This document shows, piece by piece, positions 12,618 to 64,000 of a DNA stretch of 64,000 nt (position 1 is its first letter; each line of letters begins with the position of its first letter). The translations under genes and the position numbers were made by a program. The notes under the pieces are model-generated. The model ran no database searches. It worked only from the letters and a program-made list of their open reading frames with translations, and was not told where the DNA came from. Location of the stretch: the IMG/VR virus record IMGVR_UViG_3300042691_019786; one strand, given 5' to 3'. This DNA is from a virus.

Positions 12618-12690
12618 TCTAAATGGCAAGGTTCGAACTTGCGGTCTCTGCGTCCCAAACGCAGCGGAATACCAACTTTCCCACATCTAG
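12618..12690 (-). tRNA. tRNA-Pro(TGG)
   Basis: ctgcg-ttTGGga-cgcag. Confidence 0.88.
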
Positions 12691-12753
12691 ATATTTTTAA
12701 ACCAACATGTCAAATAACGTTCCTATTAATTGGGTGGCATAGGTGCCATAAAC

Positions 12754-12788
12754 AAAAAAACCCAGTCTAGATTTCTCTGAACTGGGCC
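12754..12788 (-). terminator. Attenuator terminator 1
   Basis: ggCCCAGT...ACTGGG-TTTTTTT; the 5' arm is also complementary to ACTGGGC inside the leader ORF. Confidence 0.8.
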
Positions 12789-12809
12789 TTATAAGTGTTT
12801 TTATATTTC

Positions 12810-12911
12810 TTATAATGTAGTCAAGTCAAACAACATGACACGCCCAGTCGATTGCGGTTGTCCGCCTTTCGTATACTGTTTCGGTTGATATGTCATATAA
12901 GTTGTTTTCAT
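12810..12911 (-). CDS. Leader peptide 1 MKTTYMTYQPKQYTKGGQPQSTGRVMLFDLTTL
   Basis: Residues 1-20 are only M,K,T,Y,Q,P,G; downstream tRNAs are Pro, Pro, Gln, Tyr, Thr, Gly, Gly, Lys, Lys. Confidence 0.85.
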   Translation of the reverse strand: MKTTYMTYQPKQYTKGGQPQSTGRVMLFDLTTL

Positions 12912-12920
12912 TTTCTTTTA

Positions 12921-12996
12921 TATTAAATATATGGTTTTTTTAAAAAGTTTAAATTTATACTACAAATGTACGAACTATTTTTACATTTGTCAAGTT
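12921..12996 (-). promoter_or_regulatory. Bacteroidetes-type sigmaA promoter (TTGACA...TACATTTG) plus TATATTTAAT element upstream of leader 1
   Basis: Matches the -33/-7 consensus; nearly identical to 55161-55235. Confidence 0.75.
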
Positions 12997-13011
12997 TTTT
13001 TCAAACTTTTT

Positions 13012-13473
13012 TTAATTTTTTTTATTTTTATTTATTTCATCCCTTAATTCAGCTGCTTTTTCGTATTCTTCAGCTTGAATCGCTTCTTCTAATAATTCTT
13101 CCAAAGACTTAGGGTCTTCAAGTTCAAATGGCATGTCTGAAACTTCTAACTTAACAATTTCACCGTCTTCAACTTCCCATATAGACTTTTTAAAGTATAA
13201 TTCATCTTCATGATAATACTCTACTCTAGTAGGTTCACCATATTCAGTGTCTATTTTGAATTTTTCATCATCATCAGTTATTTGTCTAGCGTTAGACAAC
13301 ACTTTGATTAATTTGGATAATTCATCACTAAACCCTTCATTTTTAGGTTTTTCCTCTTTTTTATTTTTCTTCTTAGATTCATCTGAATTCTTTTTATTAA
13401 AGAACTCTTCGAATAATTCGTCAAATGTTTTCATTTTACTTTTTTTTTTTAATAAATTTTTCATGTAACCCAA
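13012..13473 (-). CDS. UvrB/UvrC-motif protein
   Basis: C-terminal LEEAIQAEEYEKAAELRDEI; start probably MKTFDE. Confidence 0.75.
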   Translation of the reverse strand: MGYMKNLLKKKSKMKTFDELFEEFFNKKNSDESKKKNKKEEKPKNEGFSDELSKLIKVLSNARQITDDDEKFKIDTEYGEPTRVEYYHEDELYFKKSIWEVEDGEIVKLEVSDMPFELEDPKSLEELLEEAIQAEEYEKAAELRDEINKNKKN

Positions 13474-21155: not shown

Positions 21156-21156
21156 G

Positions 21157-21228
21157 TACAGCGTGTTGGAATCGAACCAACGTCCCCCACTTCTATAGAG
21201 TGGACTCTACCACTGGAGCTAACGCTGT
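21157..21228 (-). tRNA. Atypical tRNA, anticodon ATA
   Basis: Cloverleaf; ccact-ctATAga-agtgg; no nucleotide 26. Confidence 0.55.
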
Positions 21229-21239
21229 AAATGAGTACC

Positions 21240-21368
21240 AAGATTGCCCTTTTTTTTGTGCTACCCTTACACCACACGCCCCTACCTCTGTTTTAGGACA
21301 TGCTGGGATTCGAACCCAGTCCCTTTGTTATCTATACAAATTTTTAGTTAACTTGCTGAAACAATCTT
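21240..21368 (-). ncRNA. Circularly permuted tRNA-mimic (YrlA-like topology) on a TCAGCAA stem
   Basis: AAGATTG-TTTCAGCAA, then T arm, loop-closed acceptor stem, D arm, CAATCTT. Confidence 0.65.
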
Positions 21369-21409
21369 TTAATTACTCTGTAAGACAGAGGACTTAATAC
21401 TGGGGGAAC

Positions 21410-21533
21410 AAGATTACTTTTTTGATACGTGCTCTATCCGCTGAGCTAACCGCCCAATTAAGGACAGTATGGGATTCGAACCCATGACCACGAGGTTAAC
21501 AGCCTATTCAGTTTTTGTTGCTGAAATAATCTT
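21410..21533 (-). ncRNA. Circularly permuted tRNA-Asn mimic on a TCAGCAA stem
   Basis: AAGATTAT-TTCAGCAA, agg-ctGTTaa-cct, T arm, loop-closed acceptor, D arm, GTAATCTT. Confidence 0.65.
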
Positions 21534-21585
21534 TCTTTCCCTTGTAACATTCTACGCAGTTCCCCACGTAGAATATTATTGCTAA

Positions 21586-28259: not shown

Positions 28260-28331
28260 TTATATTCGGTGGGAACACTATATCATCCGCTCATAGAGTC
28301 TGTCAATAATATAGGTTCATCACCTCACTTG

Positions 28332-28402
28332 TATTGGGTACGGGATTCGAACCCGTGTCAACCGCTTCACTGCGGCCATCCTATCCACTAGACGAACCCA
28401 AC
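28332..28402 (-). pseudogene. tRNA-like gene (Glu/Asp-type body) with a 6-nt anticodon loop
   Basis: gccgc-agtgaa-gcggt; other arms intact. Confidence 0.55.
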
Positions 28403-29049: not shown

Positions 29050-29139
29050 TTAACTACATACATAGGTTGACCTCCCTAGGCTAAAATCGGCCTCGGCTGC
29101 GAAGAAGTCAAATTCAAATATGTTATTAATTGTTCTCAT
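29050..29139 (-). CDS. Leader peptide 2 MRTINNIFEFDFFAAEADFSLGRSTYVCS
   Basis: Run FEFDFFAAEADF; downstream tRNAs are Phe, Glu, Glu, Asp, Ala, Asp, Ala. Confidence 0.88.
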   Translation of the reverse strand: MRTINNIFEFDFFAAEADFSLGRSTYVCS

Positions 29140-33240: not shown

Positions 33241-34434
33241 TTATAACTTGTAAAATTCTCTTCTTATTTTAACCAATAAAGTATTAACCAATTCTGGGTC
33301 AATCTTGTTTGGTAAGTCTGATTCGTCAAAGATTCTATCCATCTCTTTGATTTCAGCTTCTGCTGTATCAATAAGTGTATCTAAATCAACTTCACCACGT
33401 CTAATCGCTAACAATTCTTTAGCGTCTGGTCGTCTAACGATAATACCTTCACCTCTACCAATTTCTTTAGCCATTCTGATTAATCGCATACAATGCATCA
33501 TGTTTTTACCGTCAATCTTTTGACCATGTGCTTGTGTGTCAACATAACGCTGTTCATTTCTGTTAGCCAACCATTCTTCATACTCTTTGTAATCTTTACA
33601 ATGCATTGAGTAACCATCTTTGTTATAGATAATGTTACAGATAGGTTTTTCACCTTTTGGTATACTAGATAACCTTAATTGATTTGATTCAGCAGCGTTT
33701 GCACCTTCACCAGTCTTAACAAGACCTTTATATCCAAAACCCATAGGGTAACCTTCTTCTTTTCTCCAAGCTTTAGACTTTTCTCTAATATCTTCTGGAA
33801 TGTTTTCGTTAAAACAGTTATTAGCATCAACATCAAAGAAAACAGCATAAACATCTCTAGCGTTAGGTACGTTAGTTACACCGCAAAACTTTTCATCATA
33901 TGTACCGTTATTCCACACTTTCCATGGAATAGATTTTTCACCTTCAATAACATATACAAAGTCCAATACATCTTTACGAGTTACTTTATCTTTCTCCCAA
34001 TTCTGTTTTTTGTTAAGACCTCTAGCTTTTTGGATTTGCTGTACAGCATAACCAGCAAATGAGTTCTTACACCTTTTGGTAATAAAATCAGCCTTGTGGT
34101 CCAATACATATTGGAACAATGGATGTTTTGTGATGATACAATCTTCTGGTGTGTTAAGCAACTCTAAAACTGTAGGATTTGAGCTTCCCATTAGTTCTAA
34201 GAACCTTTTTAACTCCCAACCAGTATAGTCAGCATTAACATTCAACTGTTCAACATATCCAGTACCCAAGATATTATCAATAGGTAACATGTAAACGAAT
34301 TTTCGGTCTTCGTCAGACGTTGGTGTCTGAGTACCATAGGCTTGACTACCAATAATGCATTCAAAAAGAATCAATCCATTCTCTTTAAGGTAATCGTATG
34401 TAATTTTCTGTGTCATATTCTTAATTTTTAACAA
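33241..34434 (-). CDS. Pol-beta-superfamily nucleotidyltransferase (YcgL/RlaP-like)
   Basis: GSQAYG....SD.D, NP.VLE and K...H..RL...IR.G motifs. Confidence 0.85.
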   Translation of the reverse strand: MLKIKNMTQKITYDYLKENGLILFECIIGSQAYGTQTPTSDEDRKFVYMLPIDNILGTGYVEQLNVNADYTGWELKRFLELMGSSNPTVLELLNTPEDCIITKHPLFQYVLDHKADFITKRCKNSFAGYAVQQIQKARGLNKKQNWEKDKVTRKDVLDFVYVIEGEKSIPWKVWNNGTYDEKFCGVTNVPNARDVYAVFFDVDANNCFNENIPEDIREKSKAWRKEEGYPMGFGYKGLVKTGEGANAAESNQLRLSSIPKGEKPICNIIYNKDGYSMHCKDYKEYEEWLANRNEQRYVDTQAHGQKIDGKNMMHCMRLIRMAKEIGRGEGIIVRRPDAKELLAIRRGEVDLDTLIDTAEAEIKEMDRIFDESDLPNKIDPELVNTLLVKIRREFYKL

Positions 34435-39712: not shown

Positions 39713-40426
39713 TTAAGCTAATTTCAATGGTCTTAAATATTCTCTTAGGAACGCATTAACTGGTCCACCAATTTTTTCTTCCCATTGTTTATAATTCTTA
39801 GCATTTTTCTCTTCCAATTGAGATAAAGCTTTCTCTGATGGCTTGTGTCTACTCCATGGTAACGTTTCTGGTACAAAGTCTGGATATAACGTTCTGTTAA
39901 ACACCCTTTCATCAACTAAGAAAACAAACGCTGTTAATTGGTCACCCAAATCTGGTTCATGAAACTCTTGCAACAACACACCAGCTTCACGCATAGTTTG
40001 CATGTGTCTATTCAAAGTTCCCAATCTTTCTGGGTTGTTGTTTGTTGTACCACCGTTAAGAATAATAAATGTTTTATCTTTATCAGCCCATTTGTTATAT
40101 ATTTGTTGATGTGGTTTTAACCCTTCAACAGTTCTACCATAATCAACGACAGCGTGACCAAATTGGATTCCTTGTTGAATCGGGGACATGTTATACGGAA
40201 CCAACCCATACATTCTACGTTCTAAGTACATTTCACTCTTACGTGGTGTTGAATCAGCTTTAACTTTACATAACCCTAAACGTCTGTAAAACTCTTGCAC
40301 ATCAATTTTTTCTTCATAATACGATTCTTCGTAAAATGCCATAGATGTGTCCCATGATGAAATGTCTAATATTCTAACATTTGCATCTAAACACCATTCA
40401 TATCCAGTTTTTAATATCTTTTCCAT
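39713..40426 (-). CDS. Pth2-like peptidyl-tRNA hydrolase domain protein
   Basis: IQ.GHAV, IILNGG and F.EPDL...LTA motifs. Confidence 0.6.
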   Translation of the reverse strand: MEKILKTGYEWCLDANVRILDISSWDTSMAFYEESYYEEKIDVQEFYRRLGLCKVKADSTPRKSEMYLERRMYGLVPYNMSPIQQGIQFGHAVVDYGRTVEGLKPHQQIYNKWADKDKTFIILNGGTTNNNPERLGTLNRHMQTMREAGVLLQEFHEPDLGDQLTAFVFLVDERVFNRTLYPDFVPETLPWSRHKPSEKALSQLEEKNAKNYKQWEEKIGGPVNAFLREYLRPLKLA

Positions 40427-41733
40427 TAATTTCCTATTTCAATTAAATGTGATACAGTACATTGTGCTGAGTTATATACTATATATTCGTTATTTCTTAG
40501 GTCAGCGCCACCTTTTGCAAACACACTATCAAATCCTTCATTATCTAACACTTTCTTAGATAACTTATAACAGCTTGAGTCATGGTGCAATATTTCTTTT
40601 TGTTTACCCAAATGCACATCAAACAATGCCAAAAACGCTTTGTTATCACCACCATGAGCCCAATAAGAACCTCTTAACGATGTGTAACCAATAGATTTTT
40701 GTGCTTTGTCAGCAAAGTAGATACCATCACCAAACATTGACCCAGTATGTACCGCACCAGATGGTCTGATAAGTAACCCAGTTTGTAAAATGTTAAACCA
40801 GTTCTCATTTCTTGACCCATGCCAGTATAGTCTACGTTTCTTAACTTCAACTTTATCCATGTGTTTATCAAATATTTTTTGTGTTTTGTTGTTAACAACC
40901 TTGAACACACGTTTCATTTGATTCACATTTGGACCCATCAATTTTTTGATAAGTTCAAGCGTTTCAGTATCATTTTCAACCTCAATAGATAATCCCATTT
41001 GGTCTAAGATAGTAACTTCAGATACTTCTTCTTTTTTACCTTCAGCTTCAGCCTCAGCAGCTTTCTTAGCAGCTTCTCTTTGTTGTTTAATCAACTCAAC
41101 TTGACCAGCCATTGTATCCAACGCTGATTGTTCGTTATCAATCAATCTTTGTGCGTTAGTCAAACTAACATCATTACTAATCTCTCTAAACAAATGGTCT
41201 TTTACGTTATCCATTCTTCTAGGGATAATTGTATAAAGTTTCAATAACATATCATTGATATGTTTGATATCTACACCAATAGCAATCAATCCACTAATGT
41301 TAGTGATAATCTCTTGTGCAGCGGTAACTTGTTGTTCCGATACAGCTTCTTGCGTTACCTTATAGTTACGTTGGATTGATTTGTTGGCAAATGACATCAA
41401 TTCATCAACCAATTTACGCACAATCTCATCTTTGATATTTGCAACTTTATTATCAACTGGTTTTGATTCATCCACAACTGGTTCAGCCAACAAATCAGTT
41501 ACATCTGTATAACCTTTTGTTTTTGATAGTTTTTGTTTCAACACACTATCCCATTTTGAACTAGGTTTATATTCAGTTGTTAAAGACTTGCCAACACGAC
41601 CATATTCACATTTGATACGGCCATCTGATAATTCTTCCATAATATAAACTTTATTACTTTGGCTGGTCAAACCATTATCAACTGATACATGTATCAGTTT
41701 TGCGTATCTTAAACCGTTCTCTTTTACTATCAT
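40426..41733 (-). CDS. WGR-domain poly/mono(ADP-ribose) polymerase
   Basis: YGRVG (WGR-like), LYT.IP regulatory helix, WHGS, G.MFG.GIYFA..S..Y and NEYIVY (H-Y-E triad). Confidence 0.9.
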   Translation of the reverse strand: MIVKENGLRYAKLIHVSVDNGLTSQSNKVYIMEELSDGRIKCEYGRVGKSLTTEYKPSSKWDSVLKQKLSKTKGYTDVTDLLAEPVVDESKPVDNKVANIKDEIVRKLVDELMSFANKSIQRNYKVTQEAVSEQQVTAAQEIITNISGLIAIGVDIKHINDMLLKLYTIIPRRMDNVKDHLFREISNDVSLTNAQRLIDNEQSALDTMAGQVELIKQQREAAKKAAEAEAEGKKEEVSEVTILDQMGLSIEVENDTETLELIKKLMGPNVNQMKRVFKVVNNKTQKIFDKHMDKVEVKKRRLYWHGSRNENWFNILQTGLLIRPSGAVHTGSMFGDGIYFADKAQKSIGYTSLRGSYWAHGGDNKAFLALFDVHLGKQKEILHHDSSCYKLSKKVLDNEGFDSVFAKGGADLRNNEYIVYNSAQCTVSHLIEIGN

Positions 41734-48529: not shown

Positions 48530-49654
48530 TTACAACATTTTATATAACGTTTTATCGTCATAGTTAAACATATATTCTTCAACTGATGCTATTTTGTAAT
48601 CTTTCAACCCAAAATACAACCCAGTAAAGTTTTTTAAATCATATTTCTCACAAACTTCAAACACAGCAGCAGCAAACTTTTTTTGTTCTGGTTTTGTTAC
48701 GTTTTTTGGTTTACGCAACTTTAATTCATCCCATACAACATTCAATTTTGCAACCAACGCATCGTAAGACTCTTTAAGACGATTTAATTCTTCTGTTCTT
48801 TCTGGGAAAGTAGCAGCAAATTCTTCTATCTCGTTAGTTTTTACAATAGTTAATATGTTGTGTTCAGCAGTTTTACCTTTCAAGTGGTGTACCGCAACAT
48901 ATGCTGGATTTTTCACTTTAACACGATTGTCATTACCATCACGTACAACATAACCTTCTTCAGACCATGGCATACCTTCAAATGTTTTCAACAAGTGACC
49001 AACATTTTTTGCGTTTAAATCAAAAGATTTTACCAATGGTATATCCAATGATACCGCAGTCATTTCCAAGTCTCTCCCAGACAACTCAACAAGTGTTTTT
49101 CTGTTTCTAACAGCCAACAAAGTCGCTGATGATTCACCATGTGGTTTTACTACTATGTTATATGGTGTAGTTAACTCAAACACATAGATATAATCATAAT
49201 TTAACAAACATGCATTGAATGTGTATTTGTTGTTAACAGTATCCCAAAACAATTCGTTAAATTTAGTACCATTTTTGTTGTTAACTTCACCTTCACCGTT
49301 TGCAGTACCAGTAGTACCAGCATACCATGTCATGTCGTGCCAATCATAATACACTTGTATCATAGTACCATCCAATTTTTCAAGTACTTGTGCAGTATTC
49401 CAATCTATTTTAGCAGCGTTACCTTCTTCAGAGTTGAAGAATTTTCTAAACGCCAAAGACATTACGTTCCAAGTACCTTTTTCAAGGATGATTCCACGAC
49501 AATCTTGCATCTCTGGCAATGACATAAGTGTTGGTGACACTAATTGGTCATACTTCAAGAGTATTTTGTGTTCATACTCTCTAGTTTTTAAAGAAAAGTC
49601 TTTGATTGTTTTTTCTAAACCGTGTGTTCTTAAATATTTTTGTATAGCTAACAT
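48530..49654 (-). CDS. Rnl1-family (T4 RnlA-like) RNA ligase
   Basis: CRG, KFFN, EKLDG, FEL, EGYV and VKVK...Y motifs. Confidence 0.9.
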   Translation of the reverse strand: MLAIQKYLRTHGLEKTIKDFSLKTREYEHKILLKYDQLVSPTLMSLPEMQDCRGIILEKGTWNVMSLAFRKFFNSEEGNAAKIDWNTAQVLEKLDGTMIQVYYDWHDMTWYAGTTGTANGEGEVNNKNGTKFNELFWDTVNNKYTFNACLLNYDYIYVFELTTPYNIVVKPHGESSATLLAVRNRKTLVELSGRDLEMTAVSLDIPLVKSFDLNAKNVGHLLKTFEGMPWSEEGYVVRDGNDNRVKVKNPAYVAVHHLKGKTAEHNILTIVKTNEIEEFAATFPERTEELNRLKESYDALVAKLNVVWDELKLRKPKNVTKPEQKKFAAAVFEVCEKYDLKNFTGLYFGLKDYKIASVEEYMFNYDDKTLYKML

Positions 49655-53142: not shown

Positions 53143-53148
53143 ATGTTG

Positions 53149-53218
53149 TACCGACTGTGAGGTTCGAACTCACTTAACCATCCATATGAGGGACGGTCCT
53201 TTTCCACTAAGTGTCGGC
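53149..53218 (-). tRNA. tRNA-CAT (Met/Ile2) with a shortened D arm
   Basis: cgtcc-ctCATat-ggatg. Confidence 0.7.
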
Positions 53219-53224
53219 ATTTTG

Positions 53225-53326
53225 CTCACCCACTAGGATTCGAACCTAGGACCTAACGGTTAACACTCCTTGTATGAACTTACTTATCATACCTAGCCGT
53301 TTGCTCTACCACTGAGCTATGGGTGA
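53225..53326 (-). tRNA. tRNA-Asn(GTT) with a 30-nt insert (53265-53294) in the anticodon loop
   Basis: aacgg-ct[insert]GTTaa-ccgtt; the rest is canonical. Confidence 0.8.
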
Positions 53327-53336
53327 ATATTTGTTG

Positions 53337-54148: not shown

Positions 54149-54150
54149 AT

Positions 54151-54729
54151 TTATTTATTCTTACCAGCGTATGTTTCAGTTTGTGAATGACAATTAGGAC
54201 ATAAAAAACGTAAATTTTCTATTCTATTATCATTATTTATACCGTTAATATGGTCTATTTGTAATATTAGTTTACCACCCATCCATTCACCAGTATTACC
54301 ACAACTTACACATTTATACTCTAATAAATTACTTCTTAACACTCTATTCTTTAAATGACCAGAATTATATTGTGAATTTTCACAAAATATTTCAGAATCA
54401 CTATATTTTACCTTAGTAACGTTTCTTCTAGGGTTACCTTTATATAAATCATTATCTATTCCATATAAATCAAAATACCTTTTTAACGTTCTATAATTAC
54501 CAGCTTTTAGTGTTAAACCCATTTTTTCTAACACTTCAGCTTTAGAATTTGAAGATTCTATTAAAGGTTTTAATTCTTCAAAACTCCATTTATGATAATA
54601 TTTTTTAGGTTTAAGACCATATTTATCTGCCCAATATCTTATAGTCGTTAATGATTTATTAGTTTTTTTACTTATTTGTCTTAAAGATAAACCTTCTTTA
54701 AGAAGTTTTTCTAATTCTATTTTTTCCAT
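54151..54729 (-). mobile_element. HTH-HNH homing endonuclease
   Basis: C..CG...DHING...DNR.ENLR.LCPNCH. Confidence 0.9.
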
Positions 54730-54786
54730 ATTTATGTTTTTATATAAATATAGAATAATAGTTCAAAAAGTAAATATCACTTTAAA

Positions 54787-54821
54787 AATCTAGCACTCTA
54801 ACCAACTGAGCTAACGCCACC
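54787..54821 (-). pseudogene. 5' half of a tRNA-His-like gene, truncated at the anticodon loop
   Basis: GGTGGCGT-TA-GCTCAGTTGGTTAGAGT-G-CTAGA-TT, then the HNH promoter. Confidence 0.7.
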
Positions 54822-55001
54822 GTCTATTGTAACAAATATTATTATGTTACCGTTTTCTTTTTTAAATCTTAGGTCACCGTTGTAACCCATTTGTTTTGCT
54901 TTTTCTTTATACTCGTCAACTATTTCATCAAAGTTTTCGTTAAACTTTTTTACTTTTACTTTTCCGAGTGGTCTTACTAATTCTTCCATAGTTATAAGCA
55001 T

Positions 55002-55059: not shown

Positions 55060-55155
55060 CTATTCTATGATGTTATTTAACATACCTTGACCGTTATGGA
55101 AACTATTGCGTCTCCAATTATTAATCGAAATCATATGTATGTTAATTGTTCTCAT
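55060..55155 (-). CDS. Leader peptide 4 MRTINIHMISINNWRRNSFHNGQGMLNNIIE
   Basis: Rich in R,I,N,H,M,S,W; downstream tRNAs are His, Trp, Ser, Ile, Ile, Asn, Asn, CAT, Arg, Arg, Ser. Confidence 0.88.
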   Translation of the reverse strand: MRTINIHMISINNWRRNSFHNGQGMLNNIIE

Positions 55156-57112: not shown

Positions 57113-58243
57113 TCAAAAAATAAATATATCTAGATAAAGTTTTTTAAAATTATCAGTTTCTAGTCTTTGTATTTCTTTACCTAATTCTGGTCCTTGTTTT
57201 AACCCCATCTTTGTCATTAGGTCTGAACCATTAACCGTTAATTTAAATAATAAAAATGTATCTATAATCTTTACATCAATACCACTTAATTGAGCAAATC
57301 TAGTTATTTGTTCTGCTGTTACACCAGATGTCTTTTCAGCTTTTTTAAGCGTTACAGCTGTATCAATCGACAAATTCAATAGACTAATCAAAAATGTAAT
57401 AGCTCTTATTTCATCAATTGAGTATTTTAATTTGTTCAATTGTTTTGTTAATAAATCAACTTTATTATTCTTTAACAACATTGCTAAAACAATAATTATA
57501 TCATTATCTTCAATGAAATTTTTATTAACATTAACATCTTTAAAAACCCAATCAAATAAATTGTATTTGTCAATCATTTTTAAAAACGATTTTACAGATT
57601 TTGCTGATTTGATACCTTTCAAAAACTCATCTCTGATTCTTTCACCAGATATACCTTCCAAACTAGCATCTTTTTGCAATGCAGCGTCAACTGATGGGTC
57701 TAATTCACTACCAAATCTACCAGCAAATCTAATTGCTCTTAATATACGTAATCTATCTTCACCAAATCTATCTTCAGCTGCACCTACAGTCCTTACAACA
57801 CTGTTTTTAAGGTCTTCTATACCATCAACCAAATCAACAACTTCTGACGTGTCTATATCGTAAAATAATGCGTTGATTGTTAAGTCACGTCTTTTAACGT
57901 CACCTACTATATCTGTAAAACTAACACCATCTGGTCTTCTACCGCTAGATAAGTCTTCCCTAAAAGTTGCGATTTCGTATTCACCCATATCAGTAAAGAC
58001 GTTGATAACACCAAATGCTTTACCAGTTGGTAAAGTTCTAAAACCACCTTTAGCCATTATGTCTTCCACTTGGTCTGGGATAGCATCGGTTGCCAAATCG
58101 TAATCTTTAGGTGTTTTACCTAACAACGCATCACGCACTGCACCACCTACAACATATAGGTTAAAACCATTTTGCTTAAAAACATCTTTTATTTGTAAAA
58201 TGTCTTTTGGTATTGGCATATCAAATATAATTCTCTTTTCCAT
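57113..58243 (-). CDS. cca: CCA-adding tRNA nucleotidyltransferase (class II)
   Basis: VGGAVRD...DYD, RRDLTINAL, EDRLRILRAIRF and ERI..E motifs. Confidence 0.92.
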   Translation of the reverse strand: MEKRIIFDMPIPKDILQIKDVFKQNGFNLYVVGGAVRDALLGKTPKDYDLATDAIPDQVEDIMAKGGFRTLPTGKAFGVINVFTDMGEYEIATFREDLSSGRRPDGVSFTDIVGDVKRRDLTINALFYDIDTSEVVDLVDGIEDLKNSVVRTVGAAEDRFGEDRLRILRAIRFAGRFGSELDPSVDAALQKDASLEGISGERIRDEFLKGIKSAKSVKSFLKMIDKYNLFDWVFKDVNVNKNFIEDNDIIIVLAMLLKNNKVDLLTKQLNKLKYSIDEIRAITFLISLLNLSIDTAVTLKKAEKTSGVTAEQITRFAQLSGIDVKIIDTFLLFKLTVNGSDLMTKMGLKQGPELGKEIQRLETDNFKKLYLDIFIF

Positions 58244-59671: not shown

Positions 59672-59723
59672 AACTTTTTTTTAATAAATATATCAATAAT
59701 AATGCCAAAGTAAACATTATTTG

Positions 59724-59794
59724 TGGTCTTAGAGGGAATCGAACCCTCACTATCGGTTTTAGAGACCGTTACGCTGCCGTTACATCATAAGACC
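59724..59794 (-). tRNA. Amber suppressor tRNA (CTA)
   Basis: Cloverleaf; acggt-ctCTAaa-accga; own promoter motif at about 59806. Confidence 0.88.
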
Positions 59795-63336: not shown

Positions 63337-63341
63337 ATGTG

Positions 63342-63419
63342 TGCCCTAGACTGGCTACGAACCAGTTATCCCATAGATATCTTTCGATACCCATCTGATA
63401 AAGTCTAAACTTCTAGAGC
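63342..63419 (-). ncRNA. tRNA-like RNA without an anticodon loop
   Basis: GCTCTAG/CTAGGGC acceptor, T arm, central GTATC-GAAA-GATAT hairpin. Confidence 0.5.
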
Positions 63420-63423
63420 ATAG

Positions 63424-63498
63424 TTGGCCAGAATCTGTTTTTTTTACTTTGCTTAGAATATAGTATAGTTAAATTGCTGAATAGATTCTTTCTGCCAA
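63424..63498 (-). ncRNA. TCAGCAA-stem RNA
   Basis: TTGGC..AGAATCT-ATTCAGCAA...AGATTCT.GCCAA. Confidence 0.55.
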
Positions 63499-63510
63499 TA
63501 AGTTTATCTC

Positions 63511-63790
63511 AAGATGGTTTTTTGTGTTTTTTCATCCCAGCGGATTAACCCTTTTTACGTCTTCGGCTACGCTTTGGCGAGAGTCTACTGTTATTCGACT
63601 ACATCCTACTTGCACCTATTGGGGTGGTTGTGACGTGGTTTTTGTTTTAATTGGAAACCTAACCAATTTTGTTTAATTCCGTTGCAGTAAAAACCATCCG
63701 AGTCCTTCTTTCAAAGGTCATATTGTCTTTCTGGCATACCAACTAAACTCTCATAGTAATTGTATCTGTTTTGGTTGCAGAACCCATCTT
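63511..63790 (-). ncRNA. ~280-nt RNA closed by a CTGCAA-variant stem
   Basis: AAGATGG-GTTCTGCAA...CCATCTT with a nested second motif; follows a promoter and boxA. Confidence 0.5.
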
Positions 63791-64000
63791 TTTAGATAAT
63801 ATTTTTAATATGTAAAGAACGTTGTTTTTAATTATATTACAAATGTACTAATAAATATGTGGTTTGTCAAGTAAAATCAAAAATATTTTTAATTTATTTT
63901 TTTGTACCACCCATTTCATTCTGTTTATCGTTTGTAAGTTCCTCTAAAACAACTAAAACGTTATGTTTAGTCGTTAAATCATGAATCACATTAACAACAT

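Follow-up and report, generated by a model that had tools for sequence, protein, structure and literature searches.

A likely ribosome-mediated transcription attenuator in front of a phage tRNA operon

Analysis of a 64,000-nucleotide stretch of DNA from a giant uncultured phage (IMG/VR record IMGVR_UViG_3300042691_019786, here called the window) led us to an element on the minus strand which is likely to be a ribosome-mediated (leader-peptide) transcription attenuator controlling a phage tRNA operon. An attenuator had been proposed here in an earlier, sequence-only reading, and the promoter, leader, sensor codons, antiterminator and terminator of such a device were all found to be present and conserved, the evidence being computational throughout.

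Organization of the element and proposed mechanism

The element and the tRNA operon that follows it are composed of the parts listed below, named according to the role that each would have in the model.

12993-12961, minus strand: promoter P1, consisting of TTGACA (12993-12988), 17 nt and TACATTTGTA (12970-12961)
12960-12912, minus strand: 5' untranslated leader, A-rich and without a Shine-Dalgarno sequence
12911-12810, minus strand: leader ORF of 33 codons and a stop (ATG at 12911, stop codon at 12812-12810)
12908-12852, minus strand: sensor codons 2-20 (4 Thr, 3 Tyr, 4 Gln, 2 Pro, 3 Lys, 2 Gly and 1 Met)
12907-12890, minus strand: region 1, the 5' half of the protector (anti-antiterminator) helix, inside codons 2-8
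12871-12849, minus strand: small hairpin of the Gly-Gly and Pro codons, situated in the loop of the protector helix
12848-12842, minus strand: antiterminator strand ACUGGGC (codons 22-24), with its partner at 12787-12781
12841-12828, minus strand: region 2, the 3' half of the protector helix
12788-12754, minus strand: intrinsic terminator, with hairpin 12788-12761 (-12.7 kcal/mol) and U7 at 12760-12754
12753-12691, minus strand: spacer of 63 nt between the terminator and the first tRNA-Pro gene
12690-12395, minus strand: tRNA-Pro(UGG), tRNA-Pro(UGG) and tRNA-Gln(UUG), called by ARAGORN
12367-12334, minus strand: internal promoter-like site between tRNA-Gln and tRNA-Tyr, recognized by the promoter motif
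12252-11732, minus strand: tRNA-Tyr(GUA), tRNA-Thr(UGU), tRNA-Gly(UCC) and tRNA-Gly(GCC), called by ARAGORN
11672-11001, minus strand: homing-endonuclease-like ORF (GIY-YIG/NUMOD3, 223 amino acids), inserted in the tRNA operon
10653-10482, minus strand: two tRNA-Lys(UUU) genes, called by ARAGORN
10458-10437, minus strand: clean operon-end terminator, from a terminator scan

In the proposed mechanism, RNA polymerase would start at P1 and a ribosome would translate the leader close behind it. When charged Lys, Thr, Tyr, Gln, Pro and Gly tRNAs are plentiful, the ribosome would advance to codons 19-33 and there cover or enclose the antiterminator strand, the terminator hairpin would form and transcription would stop at U7. 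Scarcity of any single one of the six would stall the ribosome within codons 2-17, where it would mask region 1, and ACUGGGC could pair with the 5' terminator arm once this has been made; no terminator would then form and the polymerase would enter the nine tRNA genes. The leader would act as an OR-gate speedometer, in which a stall on any of six codon families opens the whole operon, and because the products are the tRNAs that decode the sensor codons the circuit would exert negative feedback on tRNA supply. Ribosome stalling and the coupling of transcription to translation in the host are steps that we infer, and the physiological trigger would be a tRNA shortage caused by a codon-usage mismatch, host tRNA decay or a tRNA-cleaving defence.

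Leader composition and matching tRNA genes

Translation of the leader ORF bore out the earlier statement that codons 1-20 specify only Met, Lys, Thr, Tyr, Gln, Pro and Gly. Between positions 2 and 20, all 18 codons other than Met specify amino acids carried by the nine downstream tRNAs (Lys/Thr/Tyr/Gln/Pro/Gly), a six-residue set with a background frequency of 0.314 in the long ORFs of the phage. The run score of the leader for residues with a downstream tRNA was reached by none of 300,000 random peptides, and among the 424 window ORFs of at least 20 amino acids it was attained by the leader alone. Every non-Met sensor codon is decodable by some tRNA of the cluster, with the Gly sensor codons GGC and GGA corresponding to its two Gly isoacceptors. 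Leaders of this type shun the phage-preferred codons CCA and GGT and employ the rare CCG, CCT, GGC and GGA/G, in which they resemble classical leaders; here the rare codons (CCG, GGC) may be imposed by the small conserved hairpin rather than by tuning of sensitivity.

The window contains further leaders at 29139, 31278 and 55155, each of which matches only its own tRNA cluster. Together with the element described above, these four were compared with two modules on other contigs (L020 and L031) and three in Cellulophaga phage phi4:1, giving nine module types. For eight of the nine leaders the own tRNA set was the best match, the set of the ninth being a subset of another, and re-assignment of leaders to tRNA sets never attained the observed total (0 of 200,000). 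The leader at L020:245 is rich in Ser, Arg and Trp and precedes three Ser tRNAs, an Arg and a Trp tRNA, and the one at L031:17366, rich in Leu, Arg, Glu, Ile and Gln, is followed by a Leu/Arg/Glu/Ile/Gln tRNA cluster. The distance from the leader stop codon to the terminator hairpin is about 25 nt in the element at 12911 and 25-37 nt in every detected attenuator module of both phage lineages, a range which leaves out one unrelated ORF at 86 nt.

Phage phi4:1 (L003, NC_021788.1, record positions 81195-93296), which infects a Bacteroidota host and has been cultured, has an array of 23 tRNAs that is split by three promoter-leader-terminator modules at L003 positions 5871, about 6831 and 8577. A leader composed of Gln, Arg, Leu, His, Glu and Pro has Pro-Glu-Gln-His-Leu-Leu-Arg tRNAs downstream, and one composed of Thr, Lys, Gly, Ile, Val, Asp, Ala, Arg and Tyr precedes the tRNA group that runs from Ala to Tyr; the annotated gp075 is probably this Thr/Lys/Gly-type leader with its start set wrongly. 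The third leader is unannotated, contains Tyr, Asn, Ser, Trp and Phe, and stands before Tyr-Ser-Asn-Trp-Phe tRNAs; for the annotated gp076, which lies near it, no composition match was found. Modelled switching of the phi4:1 leaders (see below for the procedure) has the same shape as in the window element. A T5-like coliphage served as a negative control, since its small ORFs showed no match: the 13 small ORFs beside its tRNA genes had run scores of at most 3.

These modules bear on a reading in which the attenuator is the same and the signal is amino-acid starvation or general translation stress instead of tRNA supply, so that the match between leader and tRNAs would be a general boost to translation capacity. 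The argument for it draws on what is known of the trp, his and thr leaders, as sensing of charged tRNA cannot separate a missing tRNA from a missing amino acid. Extra tRNA, however, gives no relief from amino-acid starvation, and nine modules that are each spelled in the residues of their own cluster would be purposeless for a general sensor. We consider a starvation or stress signal improbable.

Promoter and translation start

Besides its TTGACA form, P1 is compatible with the Bacteroidota pattern TTG-N20-TAnnTTTG. The sequence TACATTTGYA was found 17 times on the minus strand of the window, mostly 5' of genes, against 1.2 occurrences expected. A Shine-Dalgarno core is present in only 2 of the 56 long ORFs of the window, and the start context of the leader ORF, A-rich and without such a core, is like that of the real genes of the phage. 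The leader ORF should therefore be as translatable as those genes. The promoter form and the Shine-Dalgarno-free starts make a host of the Bacteroidota type probable. At 63338-63847 (minus strand) another strong promoter, of the TTGACAAA type, was observed, and the roughly 500 nt between it and a tRNA-Met gene hold no convincing ORF; this region may be a non-coding RNA.

The block directly 5' of the ATG is common to all four window modules. The sequence-only reading had described the promoter block as nearly identical to that of the module at 55155 (attenuator 4), and comparison of the 94 nt 5' of the ATG with 55249-55156 indeed gave 83 identical positions out of 98. This identity of 85%, compared with 62-66% for the upstream blocks of other module pairs, supports the duplication of the module that had been suggested for this pair. 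Between attenuator 4 and tRNA-His, inside that attenuator-controlled tRNA operon, lies a homing-endonuclease-like gene with an HNH-like C-terminus (about 54150-54950).

Alternative RNA folds and the modelled switch

Two pairings had been pointed out before and both were recovered. The antiterminator strand at 12848-12842 is the exact complement of 12787-12781 (ACTGGGC with GCCCAGT), which lies inside the 5' arm of the terminator, and the protector-like pairing of 12907-12890 with 12841-12828 appears in the minimum-energy fold computed without constraints. This fold has a z-score of -3.3, and none of 200 shuffled sequences folds as well. The protector helix and the antiterminator are mutually exclusive because the two cross, and antiterminator and terminator have one strand in common. 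The small hairpin of the Gly-Gly and Pro codons is kept in all homologues with altered sequence, and is possibly a pause signal.

To model the switch, a ribosome footprint from -15 to +13 nt relative to the A-site codon was masked and the RNA was then folded. For the full-length RNA at equilibrium the terminator was preferred at almost every ribosome position, the probability of the antiterminator reaching a maximum of 0.65 with the ribosome at codons 8-9. When the RNA was cut before the 3' arm of the terminator, this probability was about 0.98 for ribosomes at codons 1-17 and 0 for codons 19-28. The modelled antiterminated state is a three-way junction closed by a 7-bp helix, in which region 2 forms an inner hairpin. 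Folding of the alternative states, put forward in the sequence-only reading, hence gives a switch in the co-transcriptionally cut RNA and no clean switch at equilibrium. Since the full-length RNA at equilibrium prefers the terminator, the attenuator model depends on co-transcriptional kinetics. Classical attenuators likewise depend on such kinetics.

The model also re-forms the antiterminator helix when the ribosome is at the last leader codons; we infer that this state can be discounted because its loop would have to contain the ribosome. An automated terminator scan called the operon-end terminator and missed the attenuator hairpin because of the bulge in the latter.

Homologues and covariation

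With the neighbouring 604-amino-acid OmpA-domain protein as bait, a search of IMG/VR contigs of up to 429 kb led to 32 loci with 56-94% identity, most of which have the same tRNA cluster about 3.5 kb downstream, in varying order and copy number. Related jumbo-phage contigs yielded 15 distinct leader homologues. In codons 2-18 of these, 245 of 255 residues (96%) are in the six-residue set, as compared to 78 of 218 (36%) in the remainder of the ORFs. The order of the sensor residues varies between lineages, so that it is the composition and not the peptide sequence that is kept, as would be expected if selection acts on codon content. Around codons 5-6, homologue leaders have one or two residues from outside the set. 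A His tRNA has been gained in L007 and L008 and an Ala tRNA in L016, the respective leaders being without a His or Ala sensor codon. Other searches were negative: when 801 nt spanning the element were compared with the DNA of cultured phages, only tRNA-level similarity and no homologous leader came up, the upstream 153-amino-acid ORF found no relatives in IMG/VR, and the exact promoter pattern was found in two unrelated contigs, both without tRNA genes.

For the covariation analysis, 14 homologues were aligned. Pairing in the antiterminator helix amounts to 92.9%, and in three of its pairs both partners have changed; none of 500 shuffles was as good, and the pairing score collapsed once the partner was displaced by 1-3 columns. 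For the terminator, pairing is 94.1% and six pairs covary. Where the terminator type changes from CCCAGU/ACUGGG to CCCGAU/AUCGGG, the antiterminator strand is altered alongside, in the same columns of three strands; as read from the alignment this is three-strand covariation, and it rests on few independent events. In three homologues the stem arms contain a G-U pair or a mismatch. For the protector helix in the register of the window the homologue alignment gave no covariation and only 65.8% pairing; every homologue folds a protector helix of its own in its minimum-energy fold. The third codon positions of region 1 are invariant among the homologues, which indicates a constraint at the RNA level. 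In 14 of 14 homologues the modelled switch boundary lies at codons 16-18 and so coincides with the end of the sensor codons.

Short ORFs are common in AT-rich DNA and the terminator is favoured at equilibrium, and the leader could accordingly be taken for an ordinary small gene or a chance ORF, with the hairpin as a plain terminator, constitutive or leaky, by which tRNA transcription is held at a fixed low level. Against this stand a composition match far beyond chance, a composition that is kept while the order changes, an antiterminator that covaries with the terminator, and an edge of the sensor codons that is, in 14 homologues, also the edge of the antitermination-competent ribosome positions; we regard this explanation as highly unlikely. 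Least credible is that the leader peptide is a trans-acting micropeptide, or the terminated leader RNA a small regulatory RNA, with the tRNA adjacency secondary: the rhizobial trpL peptide and RNA provide a precedent (available parts of PMC7298713 and PMC6614838), but here peptide composition is conserved and sequence is not, the invariant third codon positions of region 1 point to an RNA-level constraint, and a trans role would supplement attenuation and not substitute for it.

Spacer and internal promoter of the tRNA operon

The spacer between terminator and first tRNA contains a nearly invariant block of about 17 nt with TTTGACAT, and a small GG..CC hairpin. The spacer block was also found in related loci at L004:10713-10807, L009:12546-12640, L013:16328-16422, L019:10018-10072 and L021:6521-6584, and in relatives without the spacer the terminator is 13-19 nt from the tRNA. 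The conserved spacer folds weakly, with a consensus helix of 4 bp only.

The internal promoter-like site was seen between tRNA-Gln and tRNA-Tyr only in the window, L004 and L009. Among the other relatives checked, no promoter motif was found inside the cluster except in L010 and L012, in which it lies just 5' of a detached final Gly tRNA. Judged by its motif, such an internal promoter could feed the Tyr, Thr, Gly and Lys tRNAs independently of the attenuator, in which case only the two Pro tRNAs and the Gln tRNA of this phage would be wholly attenuator-dependent.

tRNA-related genes elsewhere in the window

Several genes on the minus strand of the window may constitute a toolkit for tRNA and RNA repair and NAD metabolism beside the tRNA arrays: an Rnl1-like RNA ligase (48530-49654), a CCA-adding enzyme (57113-58243), an RlaP-family nucleotidyltransferase (33241-34434), a nicotinamide phosphoribosyltransferase (38-1666) and a PARP-domain protein (40426-41733). 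The first three agree with a strong investment in a working tRNA pool. Among the tRNA genes, the one at 28331-28402 (minus) has a four-base anticodon call (gtga), tRNA-Tyr at 21156-21228 (minus) was called with anticodon ata, and the tRNA at 59723-59794 (minus) is amber-reading (cta). Additional tRNA-like sequences without an ARAGORN call were observed at 53143-53335 and 21229-21568 (minus); these have acceptor/T-arm-like ends and long insertions, and may be intron-containing or split tRNA genes.

Relation to known regulatory systems

Multivalent leaders are known from enterobacteria, where thrL responds to Thr and Ile and ilvL/ivbL to Ile, Val and Leu; trpL, hisL and leuL are further leaders of this group. 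Similar to these, the element described here has a promoter, a short translatable leader rich in regulatory codons, some of them rare, a U tract, and three mutually exclusive helices (antiterminator, terminator and a putative protector). The general mechanism of leader-peptide attenuation is covered in the available part of PMC1183508. Unlike the enterobacterial leaders and outside the classical scope, the regulated genes are nine tRNA genes and a homing endonuclease, not biosynthetic enzymes or synthetases. Six amino acids would be sensed together, in mixed order and not as runs, the stop codon is situated downstream of region 2, within the antiterminator junction, and the element is phage-borne. 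In its proposed mechanism it agrees with the multivalent thr and ilv leaders; what is new is the output, tRNA genes.

In E. coli, the pheM leader attenuates pheST, which encodes phenylalanyl-tRNA synthetase. Both there and here leader-peptide attenuation would act on a gene of the translation apparatus with feedback on charged-tRNA supply, but pheM is cellular, concerns one amino acid and controls a synthetase, whereas here the tRNA genes themselves are the output. The T-box of Firmicutes binds uncharged tRNA directly via a specifier codon and controls synthetase and amino-acid genes. As in the proposed attenuator, shortage of charged tRNA (in the T-box, of one tRNA) flips a terminator/antiterminator switch; unlike the attenuator, the T-box does so without need for a ribosome or a leader ORF. 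At the gathering score, the Rfam leader families (Thr, His, Leu, Trp, Phe) and the T-box gave no match in 12690-13020, the best Rfam hit there being an unrelated motif with 21 bits against a cut-off of 59 (E = 1).

Phage tRNAs are currently viewed as constitutive aids to codon usage or as decoys against tRNA-cleaving immunity. The regulation of phage tRNA genes is, to our knowledge, essentially unstudied. The tRNA-Lys of T5 counters PARIS, which cleaves tRNA-Lys (PMC11464382), and phage tRNAs counter retron effectors according to the available part of PMC11555353. The likeness to the present case is that phage tRNAs replace cleaved or scarce host tRNAs, tRNA-Lys being among those that would be sensed here; in the parts of the two papers that were available, the subject is tRNA function and not transcriptional control. 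Nothing on inducible control of phage tRNA transcription was found in these parts or in the accessible text of PMC13015707, a 2026 survey of phage tRNA genes, and neither this survey nor a literature search gave an account of leader-peptide control of tRNA genes.

Implications

If the attenuator operates as proposed, decoding speed can feed back directly on the transcription of tRNA genes, the grouping of these tRNA arrays would be explained, and a natural reporter of codon-specific translation speed would be at hand. The idea is directly testable because phi4:1, with its three modules, is cultured. A short ORF and a terminator before tRNA genes of matching composition provide a genomic signature by which more cases may be recognized.

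More tentatively, and with somewhat more doubt than confidence, we suggest that large phages of Bacteroidota-type hosts divide their tRNA arrays into regulons, each with its own multi-codon speedometer, which would serve as inducible counter-defence and as a homeostat. A stall would arise when anticodon nucleases cleave host tRNAs, when these are degraded in the course of takeover, or when phage codon demand exceeds them, and the stalled ribosome itself would turn on replacement tRNAs for exactly that codon group. Sensor and output would then be the same class of molecule, a form of tRNA autoregulation for which we have met no description in any organism.
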